Source of the DNA: a virus
Length of the DNA stretch: 64,000 bases
Reading direction: 5' to 3' (one strand)
IMG/VR virus record: IMGVR_UViG_3300042273_000448
This document shows positions 27,001 to 30,000 of this stretch, in pieces (positions within the stretch are counted from its first letter, which is position 1; the number at the start of each line of letters is the position of its first letter). The position numbers were made by a program.

Positions 27001-30000
27001 TTATATATATGAATTTTACCCTTATTTGGGGCATCCTTTCCTATTCGCGAATTTGATATACGCTTTCGAGTTACTTCACTTCTTTTCATACCCCTATGTT
27101 TTTCTGCTGTTTTTCGAATTTTTTCAGGATTTCTATTTATTTTATCAACTCATTCATCTGATTTTTTATGACCCTTTAAAGAGTTACTTAATTTTTTATT
27201 TCTTTCTTCTGTAAATGTTTTATTATATCATGTATTATATTCTTCTAAATTCATGTTTGTAAATTTTAAAAGTCTACTTGTAGATATATTTTTTCTATGT
27301 TCTAAAGAAAGTCTTCTTCCTCTTAATTTATTTGATAATTTTTGTCTTGTTTCTTTACTTACTGGAGGTCTATTTTTAAGAGCTTTTATTTGTTTTTCCC
27401 TATATTCATTGTTTTTTCATCTTTCTTTCGATGATATAGAAATTAACTTTTTGGCTTTTGGAGTATGTTTATAATTTCTAGATTTTTCAGAAATGAGCTT
27501 TTTTGTTTTATCAGAATGTTTTCTGCCATAAAAGCCATTTGCTTCTCCACATAAAATACACACATTACCACCCAATGATAAATTATAGTTTGAGTTATCT
27601 TTAACAAACTCTTCATTCACAAGTTCCCTTTCCAATAATTCTGCATCTTCTTTATTATCAAACACCATTATAATTTCTCTTTTAAAATTTTCTGGTCCAT
27701 ATTTTTCAATAGCTCTTCTTATATATTTTCCAGACCCCAAATACCCATCATCCAAATCATTTGTAGAATGGAACCCTATATAGTATTTCCCATTAATTAA
27801 ATTTGTCGTTTTATACACCATATAATATTTTTTAGTATTTTTGAAATTCATTTCATCTCCCATAAATCTATTTATATTAGATGAAATTGCTTTTGTTTTT
27901 TCTATGGTTGTATAAAAAATATCTCCATTATCATCACACACACAAACTTTTGTATATTTGGGAACACAGGATCTCCCACGGAATGTGTCTTCAGTTGTTC
28001 CAGCAGTTTCAATTTTAGATCCATTTTCAAATTCAATGGAATTTTTGTTATATTCTATAACCCCAGGTTTTAATCAAAAAGGCAGCTCCTCATACATAAT
28101 CTTAATACGTCTAAGAAGATCTTTTGCTGAACTTGCTTTATTAGATGCAATTCCGATGAATTTATCAGAATTAAAAATTGCATATCAAAGAGCAAAAGCC
28201 CCTACTGTAGTTGAATTGTGACTCTTTATACCATTAGTATAATAACATTCCCCATCAACATCTAAACAATCATACATATTAGAAAATGTGTTTAGTTTTT
28301 CAATACTAGAAATTTCTATATCACCATTTTCTGTTTCTATAAAATTGCCTGCACTTAAATCTTTGACATAAATTTCTTTATTATTTGAAAATAAAATATG
28401 ATTATCTGCACATATTAATTCTATACCATTTGATAATGATACTTTATATTCATCATATTCAATAGTTTTGCCAACCCCAGAAAAATCTTTTCACCCTTCT
28501 GGGGTTCATATTTCATAATCTTCACAGAAACGCTTTTCAACAAATTTATCATCTATATTAAAAGAAGATATTGTTAATTTATCAAAAAATTCTCCAATAG
28601 TTAGTTCTTCCTCTATTCCAGTTTTTTTGTTTCTAATTTTTATTTTTGTGTCCCAAGAAACGCACTTTCCCGATTGTCTGCAGAACAAGAAAACCAAATA
28701 ACGATTGTCTTTACACATTTTAATCATTTTTTTCTGAAATGGGTAAAGAAGATCCCCTAATTTTTTCCTGCCACCATCGATAGTAACAATAGTAACAAAA
28801 TTAAGAAAATACAAAACATCTTCTGAACACCTAACAAGATCTGATATCATCTCAGGTGTATATTCATTTTCCATTCCTGGGGTCTTTACAAATTTATCAT
28901 CGTATCTAATTGACATATTAAAAGCCTTTTCATAGTTTGATTTATTTATATAAATATTATAAACATCAAGTGAATCATAAAATTCTGGAGGAATTTAACT
29001 CATGTCTGAAATCTTAAAATTATTTACAGAGAAAGAACAAAAATCAAAACATTTTAATGAAATCTCTACTTTGTTAGAGAATACAATTAAAACTATAAGA
29101 AAATTTAATCCTTCCTTTACACTAGAAGAGGCAATTTCTTATACTACTGGGGCACTAGGTACAATTGCAGATAATGATACAAATGGAATTTACCAAAAAC
29201 TCTCTTTGGGGTTATCAAAGAGAACTTGGGACAGATTGATTGCCAGAGAAATTGTAGGTGTTCAGCCTTTGTCTGGTCCTGTTGGCCTATATTATGCTTT
29301 GAGATATTACGCCAGTGGAACTTATGCTGGGGGAACAGATACTGAAGTTGGATTCAATAAGGCAGATAGCACCTATACTGGTTCCTATTCTACATCTGCC
29401 GGGGAATCTTTAGGTTCTAATACAAATATAGGATTAGGAATTGGTGATGATACTCTTATTAAGGAGTTGAATGTCAAGCTTGAGAAAAAACAAGCAGAAG
29501 CGGTTTCAAGAAAGCTTAGAGCATCGTTCTCTGAAGAGCTTTTTCAGGATGTTTTTGCTATGCATAGTCTTAATCTAAGAGAGCAAACATGGGATGCTAT
29601 TGCTAGAGAAATTGCTACAGAAATTGATCTTGAAGTTATTAACAAACTTGACACAGTAGCTACATCAAACTCTCTAGATTTTGCTACTGTTGCTGGCGAT
29701 AATAAGTCTGATAAGTACAATTCATTTGTCTCCTATATTATTACATTGGCCAATAGAATTGGAACTCTTACTAATCACGGGGTAGGAAACTTTGTAATTG
29801 CTAATGCAAATGTTTGTACTTGTTTAGAATCATCTCAACAGTTTGCTGTTTCTCTGCTTAACGATTTTCAGGATGATTGAGATAAGCGTGTATGTTTTGC
29901 TGGAACAATTAATGGAATGAAGATTTATCGAAATATTTTCTGGGATACAGATAAATATATTGTAGGATATAAAGGATCAACTGAACTAGATGCTGGAGTT

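Follow-up and report, generated by a model that had tools for sequence, protein, structure and literature searches.

The origin of intein endonuclease domains is an old question. In the favoured model, free-standing genes invaded inteins and later slipped into frame with them; intermediates are scarce. Here we analyse a 64-kb stretch of viral DNA (IMG/VR record IMGVR_UViG_3300042273_000448, 64,000 nucleotides; hereafter, the window), in which a gene for a GIY-YIG endonuclease lies within the large terminase gene TerL, which serves DNA packaging, at a split intein, and continues the reading frame of the N-terminal part of that intein (IntN) without a stop codon. Together with 98 related proteins, the window appears to be such an intermediate, on the way from a free-standing gene to a domain of an intein. 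Embedded in the continuous frame is a module of late promoter box, Shine-Dalgarno (SD) sequence and start codon, which is probably functional and would give the endonuclease late expression of its own.

The closest described arrangements are the fractured genes of Dassa et al. (2009; PMC2677866), including the Lake Gatun terminase locus. There, as in the window, a split intein interrupts a conserved phage enzyme gene, and a free-standing GIY-YIG gene lies on the same strand between the halves; a hairpin with the T4-type late promoter box TATAAATA precedes the endonuclease start (15 of 16 endonuclease 5' regions have the hairpin, 10 of these including the box), and the 3' end of the endonuclease gene overlaps the start of the C-terminal intein part (IntC). 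The Lake Gatun terminase intein also has the same unusual break point as the window, which leaves all blocks but N1 in a long C-part (PMC2677866). The fractured genes differ in having a stop after IntN and a non-coding gap of 27–51 nt, whereas the window is in frame with no stop, and in having overlaps of 6–69 bp, compared with 1 nt (TAATG) here. The window fits the invasion model of Dassa et al.; on its 5' side, though not on the other, it corresponds to the step IIIa that they proposed, with the flank lost and the endonuclease in frame.

The intein itself resembles AceL-TerL, GOS-TerL and Cat-TerL (PMC11766414), which have IntN parts of 25, 37 and 30 residues and IntC parts of 104–115 residues (25 and 101 in the window) and likewise have TerL as host, Cys1 and Cys+1. 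These inteins are described as stand-alone fragments, whereas IntN of the window runs on into a 346-residue endonuclease. For the control module, the precedents are late promoters within hairpins that sequester the ribosome-binding site, known for I-TevI, I-TevII, I-TevIII, segB and mobE (PMC2988022) and for Aeh1 mobE (PMC3014915). In T4 I-TevI, I-TevII, I-TevIII and segB and in Aeh1 mobE, as in the window, TATAAATA stands directly before the open reading frame (ORF) and the late RNA lacks the 5' arm of the hairpin. Those modules lie in an intron or intergenic leader and part early or middle read-through from late RNA (PMC2988022; PMC3014915); the window module, by contrast, lies in translated sequence, its upstream promoter is also late-type and its leader is much shorter.

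Canonical endonuclease inteins, with in-frame LAGLIDADG or HNH domains, and the non-canonical forms covered by a 2025 preprint (10.1101/2025.01.02.630785) also nest their endonuclease and keep the frame continuous on the N side; the window departs from them in its GIY-YIG domain, in its siting between blocks A and B and in the stop before IntC. The same 2025 survey reports in-frame LAGLIDADG and HNH, antisense LAGLIDADG and VSR-like, and out-of-frame EndoVII-like endonucleases, predicts frame capture via small indels and includes no in-frame GIY-YIG case. We found no description of an in-frame IntN–GIY-YIG arrangement in the open-access literature searched. The control module is of a known kind, that of T4 I-TevI/mobE and the fractured genes; new, as far as the sequences indicate, are the widespread in-frame IntN–GIY-YIG fusion and the code-4 TAATG junction.

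A split terminase intein with an endonuclease in frame

Coordinates are positions in the window, and the cassette is read on the minus strand, on which N-extein–IntN, endonuclease and IntC–C-extein follow one another. The window uses genetic code table 4, in which TGA encodes Trp: recoding TGA raises total ORF length from 12.6k to 19.7k residues, and the terminase frame passes five in-frame TGA codons. A tRNA-Trp with anticodon UCA is absent among the eight tRNAs encoded in the 64-kb window (11225–13302, minus strand: Gly, Pro, Leu twice, Glu, Thr, Ala and Asn). The parts of the cassette are as follows, with a slash marking an insertion site.

26811–28916, minus strand: ORF A, 701 residues under code 4, comprising the TerL N-extein with mini-intein 1, IntN, linker and GIY-YIG/NUMOD3 endonuclease; stop TAA at 26813–26811
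27894–27968, minus strand: IntN core of intein 2, 25 residues, CVPKYTKVCVCDDNGDIFYTTIEKT, following ...TFRGRS; intein block A only
27852–27893, minus strand: linker of 14 codons, KAISSNINRFMGDE, open and in frame, bearing the putative regulatory module
26814–27851, minus strand: endonuclease frame from the second ATG, 346 residues, with GIY...YIG, conserved Glu and Asn, NUMOD3 repeats and an I-TevI-like DNA-binding region
26809–26813, minus strand: TAATG, in which endonuclease stop and IntC start share one base, with AGGAAG 6 nt upstream; translational-coupling geometry
26509–26811, minus strand: IntC of intein 2, 101 residues (MEILTHKGF...block B THNH...VISHN), matching PDB 6DSL_B, 'CatC'
25447–26508, minus strand: TerL C-extein from Cys+1 (CSMLLLDELAFV, Walker B) into the nuclease domain
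28215–28664, minus strand: mini-intein 1, 150 residues, in the TerL Walker A motif (GK/CVSWDTK...GIKSHN/S); contiguous, absent from the relative L001

Because the TerL of L001, an 84%-identical relative, is uninterrupted at both places (...RQSGK/STTVG... and ...TFRGRA/AAMLLLDE...), it fixes the two insertion sites in the window TerL. Mini-intein 1, missing in L001 and in the closer relative L163 and present in L164, is a component of the same gene, separate from the endonuclease cassette. Intein 2 extends from Cys 27968 to ...VISHN/CSMLLLDE in the next ORF (ORF B), a site just before Walker B, and all its catalytic residues are present: Cys1 (27968), block B THNH, and SHN/C with Cys+1. Its IntC matches chain B of PDB 6DSL (E = 1.7e-9), that is, CatC, a consensus of the AceL-TerL/GOS-TerL atypical split inteins; IntN is too short for a sequence test. 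By these features, intein 2 is a predicted atypically split TerL intein of the AceL-TerL/GOS-TerL family. For the exteins, the family profile matches the T4 gp17 ATPase domain (E = 1e-56), the match ending just before Walker B; Terminase_6C exceeds the Pfam cut-off in ORF B, and Terminase_6N reaches 20.1 bits in ORF A, slightly under its 22-bit cut-off. The predicted spliced TerL has 519 residues.

The endonuclease matches NUMOD3 (40.8 bits, cut-off 20.4) and phrog_314, 'homing endonuclease' (9.5e-48), and the family profile matches the I-TevI DNA-binding domain 1I3J (E = 1.1e-5) without reaching the catalytic domain; a PDB search with the single endonuclease sequence gave no significant match. 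Against the Pfam GIY-YIG models the window protein falls below cut-off (PF01541, 14.4 bits against 22.6; PF19835, 19.0 against 25), and its homologues carry precomputed matches to one or other of these models. Its motif reads YMVY-(10 residues)-YIG, with Y134, Y145, G147, E195 and N211 invariant across 52 sequences.

Under table 4 there is no stop from the TerL start (28916) via the intein Cys codon (27968) to the TAA at 26813–26811, which bears out the original prediction that no stop in the TerL-N frame precedes the endonuclease. Between 27968 and 27851 there is neither TAA nor TAG nor TGA in frame. In the predicted fusion protein, IEKTKAISSNINR is the peptide stretch that spans the junction. 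A junction-spanning part of ORF A, used as a protein query, found 638 proteins, of which we analysed the best 120. Most of these 120 have 500–700 residues, 91–100% query coverage, 35–75% identity and Terminase_6N, NUMOD3 and GIY-YIG together; 98 of them contain the IntN motif, an open linker and the endonuclease in one frame, with 27–56 residues from Cys1 to the GIY strand.

With an alignment of fused proteins we then had a sample of 160 loci, 40 of them TerL-associated, ranked by the fused query; among the 40, the endonuclease is fused in 18 and preceded by a stop or a change of frame in 22. L011 is one such case: the TGA that closes its IntN frame shares bases with the ATG of the endonuclease (ttATGAaa). 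About half of the family must therefore translate the endonuclease independently, given the stop or frame change in 22 of 40. In a rough neighbour-joining tree of the endonucleases, the fused state occurs on many deep branches, with separate loci interleaved. We considered whether the missing stop is a by-product of code 4, that is, a former TGA, and rejected this: the window linker has no in-frame TGA, and 15 of the 18 fused loci, from two contig scans, use code 11 and likewise lack a linker TGA, so that the fusion is not due to code 4. Judged from these predicted proteins and loci, in-frame IntN–endonuclease fusion is widespread in metagenomes.

At the other end of the endonuclease gene, at least 17 code-11 relatives, fused or separate, overlap the IntC start and the endonuclease stop as ATGA (...aaaATGAaaatt, M-K-I-L-T/S); the junction is TAATG in the window and L163, and TAA-ATG in L164. 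The ATGA overlap in relatives and the TAATG here place the IntC start at ATG 26811 (MEILTHKGF). ATG 26832 (MINRKK...) was rejected as the IntC start, since in L163 a stop lies just upstream and the IntC of every relative begins M-(K/E/N)-(I/V)-L. The overlap is 1 nt in the window because TGA is no stop in this phage, and the junction appears to have been remodelled since TGA no longer terminates in code-4 phages. In L164 (5100–5115), endonuclease and IntC are in the same frame with one TAA between them; as read from its sequence, the L164 TerL–intein–endonuclease unit is one stop codon from a predicted contiguous GIY-YIG-containing intein.

A probable control module at the junction

On the minus strand the junction reads ...GCA ATT TCA TCT AAT ATA AAT AGA TTT ATG GGA GAT GAA ATG AAT TTC..., and the following elements can be recognized in it and upstream of TerL.

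27869–27876, minus strand: TATAAATA, T4-type late promoter box; predicted transcript start (+1) at 27863 by T4 geometry, in which the box spans -13 to -6 relative to the transcript start (PMC1524935)
27861–27863, minus strand: first in-frame ATG, at the predicted transcript 5' end, a possible leaderless start; all three close relatives keep it, 5 nt downstream of the box
27856–27861, minus strand: SD-like GGGAGA (GGAGGA in L163, GGAGGG in L164)
27849–27851, minus strand: second ATG, opening MNFKNTKKYYMVYK
27850–27887, minus strand: predicted RNA hairpin, with 5' arm AUUUCAUCU (27887–27879), inner stem UAUAAA/UUUAUG and 3' arm AGAUGAAAU (27858–27850)
28943–28950, minus strand: TATAAATA box, lying 27 nt before the start codon of TerL; the presumed late promoter for the entire TerL operon

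The box thus lies where the original prediction had it. The second ATG begins 5 nt after the GGAG core, the distance that had been given for GGGAGA, the end of which is 4 nt away; the box ends 17 nt before ATG 27851. The module had also been described as nested in the IntN coding sequence: the sequence around it is indeed open and in frame, and the module sits in the tail after the 25-residue IntN core. As transcription is predicted to begin at the A of the first ATG (27863), either ATG may serve as the start, with MGDEMNFK as predicted N-terminus from ATG 27863 and MNFKNTKK from ATG 27851.

In the window, TATAAATA (of which TACAAATA is an altered form) behaves like a promoter motif, with 33 copies compared with 15.6 ± 4.2 in shuffles. 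About 23 of the 33 are intergenic, and non-coding DNA makes up only ~12% of the window; 17 intergenic copies lie at most 130 nt (most of them 20–50 nt) upstream of a same-strand gene start, including those of TerL and of the divergent capsid gene, whose own box (28949–28956, plus strand) overlaps the TerL box. Since 10 copies are intragenic, 7 of them sense, an intragenic copy alone is unremarkable; for any particular 60-nt stretch of one strand, we estimate the chance of containing one at ~0.005. A weak flank model trained on the intergenic copies scores the junction box at +1.08, over the 95th percentile of random positions (0.74) and like intergenic boxes, and gives 8 of the 9 other intragenic boxes -5.6 to -17. 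The remaining one, at 15344–15351 (minus strand) in the ORF 14922–16253, is the sole other intragenic sense box with promoter-like flanks (+1.19) and may be an internal late promoter.

It is the comparative evidence, rather than the window copy alone, that decides that the box is more than a chance word, and four lines of it support a late promoter, SD and start codon that putatively belong to the endonuclease. We counted exact TATAAATA at most 90 nt upstream of the inferred endonuclease start. It is present in 9 of 14 non-redundant fused, 7 of 18 separate and 40 of 104 other-context loci, with a same-strand background of 0.010–0.014 per counting window, and its offsets cluster at -25 to -50 from the endonuclease start. 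In the fused loci the box stands in different reading frames (nnT-ATA-AAT-Ann, or x-I-N-N/K/R, in the window; AAA-TAT-AAA-TAT, or K-Y-K-Y, elsewhere), and its retention in these frames accounts for recurrent peptide motifs in an otherwise variable linker. The cassette would thus carry promoter, RNA-structure and translation signals overprinted on coding sequence, seen as an 8-mer kept in different frames.

A potential start codon is kept as well: 89 of 98 fused proteins have a Met within the 15 residues before the GIY strand, compared with 25% expected (nominal p = 6e-43, for sequences that are related). Six homologues of stand-alone length start at a Met 2–12 residues before the GIY strand, a range that includes both window ATGs. 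The 22 of 40 TerL-associated loci with a stop or frame change before the endonuclease call for a start of its own as well.

L163 and L164, which stand closest to the window (75% and 73% protein identity), have the same gene order and an identical box; the junctions read GCAATTTCATCTAATATAAATAGATTTATGGGAGATGAAATG (window), GCAATTTCATCTAATATAAATAGATATATGGAGGATGAAATG (L163) and GCAAATTCTTCTAATATAAATAATTATATGGAGGGTCATGCTTTG (L164). The encoded peptides diverge across it (MGDEM, MEDEM and MEGHAL, respectively), and the endonuclease starts with ATG in the window and in L163; the start in L164 is a TTG, in frame and 7 nt downstream of the SD. The longest run identical between window and L163 in 1.4 kb, 40 nt, lies at 27905–27866. 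Third-codon-position identity between window and L163 is 0.93 in the element compared with 0.63 overall, and three-way identity 0.71 compared with 0.43; by this measure, synonymous change is suppressed in the element.

The hairpin, absent from the original prediction, is predicted to fold across 27887–27850 as AUUUCAUCU-AA-UAUAAA-UAGA-UUUAUG-GG-AGAUGAAAU (9 + 6 bp), with a folding free energy of -12 kcal/mol and z = -5.15; none of 200 shuffles was as stable. Its 3' arm takes in the last three SD bases, the spacer and the A and U of AUG 27851, and its 5' arm lies upstream of the box, so that an RNA from +1 at 27863 is without the 5' arm and folds weakly (-2.3 kcal/mol). L163 retains the hairpin, with U-G in place of one U-A pair; L164 does so with re-paired arms, UCUUCUA with UGGAGGG. 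A search of Rfam over the hairpin and box element returned no family. Strong hairpins are confined to the window sub-clade, L097 (z = -4.0, same design) and L090; other-context loci with the box have a mean z of -2.4.

The 5' arm also contains a motif, TTC[AG]TC (often gcTATTTCATCTAA), at 27880–27885 on the minus strand. It occurs at most 90 nt from the endonuclease start in 7 of 14 fused and 8 of 18 separate TerL loci (expected 0.03–0.07), upstream in L004, L010, L014, L016, L083, L085–L087, L089, L090, L095–L097 and L099, and in only 4 of 104 loci with the same endonuclease in other contexts; its settings are both coding and non-coding. We rejected the idea that it always pairs with GATGAA at the start, the complement being present in the window and L163 only. 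The motif could be a homing-site remnant or an operator like that of I-TevI.

A proposed expression model and competing explanations

These features suggest a scheme with two transcripts. Late RNA polymerase would start at the TerL promoter (28950) and make an mRNA over both ORFs, on which ribosomes would produce the 701-residue TerL-N–IntN–endonuclease protein. Nothing in the sequence stops the ribosome, and this fusion product is very likely made. On the long mRNA the internal SD and AUG would be base-paired whenever the region is not under translation. The polymerase would also start at the internal box, at ~27863, and as this RNA would be without the 5' hairpin arm, GGAG and AUG 27851 (or the 5'-terminal AUG 27863) would be free. 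Short-leader or leaderless, it would yield a stand-alone endonuclease of 346–350 residues and, through coupling, IntC–TerL-C too. From the geometry, ribosomes terminating at TAA 26813 would restart at the overlapping ATG 26811 to make IntC–TerL-C; through the stop-start overlap, the TerL C half would thereby be translationally coupled to the endonuclease frame. Going by family membership, IntN and IntC would then associate and trans-splice, giving the 519-residue TerL and releasing IntN–endonuclease and IntC. The original prediction of an endonuclease made as its own late protein thus gains support from the comparative data, but not as an exclusive route, the fusion being a probable product too.

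Several observations weigh against an internal module with these functions. An SD of at least 4 bases is present in 29% of fused loci (29–46% across locus classes). The hairpin was rejected as a family-wide feature: in fused loci with the box, z averages -0.8 and is below -2 in only 22%. As the TerL promoter is late-type like the internal box, the early/late logic of the T4 hairpins is not directly transferable, and in any case ribosomes translating across the hairpin would unfold it. A very short leader is predicted, 12 nt from +1 to AUG 27851, with the SD from +3. No homologue of gp55, gp33 or gp45 turned up in the 10 of ~65 window ORFs scanned, with no search aimed at them. Finally, the ranking of loci by the fused query biases the fused-to-separate ratio.

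Among competing explanations, an unlikely one is that the signals are relics of a free-standing gene and that the endonuclease is made only as TerL-N–IntN–endonuclease, to be released after trans-splicing. It would accord with in-frame continuity that is widespread, across deep branches of the endonuclease tree, with the weak or absent SD in many fused loci and with the general lack of the hairpin beyond the window sub-clade. Relics should decay, yet the exact 8-mer persists in 64% of fused loci, in several frames, and the Met in 91%; synonymous change is suppressed in the element, and SD and start survive non-synonymous changes in L163 and L164.

Rather improbable, too, is that the internal box mainly transcribes IntC–TerL-C, against polarity, with endonuclease expression incidental. 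T4 seg and mob genes hold embedded promoters for essential downstream genes (PMC2988022), and Dassa et al. proposed that the endonuclease promoter could serve the downstream gene half too (PMC2677866); in the window, no further TATAAATA lies between 27869 and the IntC start, and translation of TerL-C is linked to the endonuclease frame by the stop-start overlap. In 38% of non-TerL contexts, however, this endonuclease family is preceded by the same box at the same spacing, which indicates that the box travels with the endonuclease, and the TerL operon promoter at 28950 already serves both halves: no terminator was found between them. Sigma-70-type promoters and intrinsic terminators in 25300–29100 are at chance level, with none on the minus strand. 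A role of the box in transcribing the downstream half would be compatible with a module that serves the endonuclease.

Very improbable is a recoding event in which the A-run GAAAAAAC (27902–27895), a 7-nt spacer and the hairpin cause a -1 frameshift, giving a canonical IntN of ~32 residues with a stop. The -1 frame does read KQKQFHLI and then meets a TAA within TATAAATA, with the hairpin at a plausible distance; the heptamer, however, is outside the X_XXY_YYZ register, the A-run is missing in L164 and most fused relatives have no stable hairpin, and frameshifting is not supported. As for a chance occurrence of TATAAATA, GGGAGA and the two ATGs in AT-rich coding sequence, the least credible account of all, the 8-mer does turn up 15.6 times in shuffles and 10 of its window copies are intragenic, but the comparative data already refute it as far as computation allows, with the box at the homologous place in 38–64% of loci compared with ~1% expected, a hairpin z of -5 and a 40-nt block of identity with L163 centred on the element.

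We tentatively go one step beyond the internal module, to an endonuclease that would exist in two forms, as a free late protein and as an intein-tethered IntN–endonuclease held on IntC, with the in-frame fusion functional and maintained; this is a possibility that we rate below even. If true, it would be the first GIY-YIG enzyme to act as an intein-borne homing endonuclease, and at a non-canonical site; read-through and stop-start coupling would hold the TerL halves at 1:1; and a series of living intermediates would be at hand, from a contiguous mini-intein (L189) through stop-separated (L011) and N-side in-frame (window) to one-stop (L164) forms. The locus offers a testable system for asking whether both endonuclease forms are made, whether a short IntN trans-splices with a 40-kDa tail and how a selfish gene avoids polarity on an essential packaging gene. 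Inteins of the AceL-, GOS- and Cat-TerL type are in use as protein-labelling tools. A natural IntN with large C-terminal cargo suggests that this end tolerates fusions.

Contiguous inteins and neighbouring features

Near-identical DNA searches of GenBank phages with 24900–29000 gave no match. A word-indexed protein search with IntC and the C-extein start returned 6 matches, mostly the window's own fragments, and a viral contig scan with the single IntN–endonuclease protein confirmed nothing; alignment-based scans did yield loci. Contiguous inteins were located with a degenerate DNA pattern for the intein C-terminus. L189 (IMGVR_UViG_3300021437_000066) has a contiguous, endonuclease-free mini-intein at the same TerL site (RGKT/CVSGSTKVC...EILSEDKF...VISHN/CQLLYIDE), and alleles of this type are a candidate target site for endonuclease homing. 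Since such contiguous mini-inteins exist, the cassette sits in what was once a mini-intein, in the loop that follows the first beta-hairpin and separates block A from the remainder of the fold. Contiguous mini-inteins also occur at another TerL site (L167, with L168, L169 and L191 as apparent split counterparts), at a third TerL site (L171, L177 and L179) and, of AceL/GOS-TerL type, in another P-loop ATPase (L186). On these predicted members, the AceL/GOS-TerL intein family is neither split-only nor limited to one insertion site.

The source phage is AT-rich, with a T4-like head module: the neighbours of TerL are a T4-type major head protein and a portal, and close relatives have Pfam Gp23, Portal_T4 and gp13 matches. 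Just 3' of TerL is a 144-residue ORF (MKTCLVHRGSMVTV...; 24978–25412, minus strand), present also in L001 (7093–7524); a 143-residue gene at the matching place in L164 (6510–6941) is, by position alone, its probable counterpart. The N-terminus of this ORF resembles intein block A; the ORF has no Pfam or PHROG match, and BLASTP against mini-intein 1 gave no similarity. Directly after this small conserved ORF comes an ORF-less island (24300–24940, probably minus strand) of 41–46% G+C in surroundings of 22–30%. It matches no Rfam family at gathering score or E ≤ 0.01, shares 77% identity over 651 nt with L001 (7555–8193) and contains a long hairpin at 24815–24902, making it a candidate structured RNA. 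Elsewhere in the window, an identical 40-nt promoter-plus-leader, TATAAATAAATTTATAAGGAACAATTCTTAGGAGGAATTT, occurs in two copies (34133–34172 and 35333–35372, plus strand), upstream of the consecutive genes 34179–35147 and 35379–36620.

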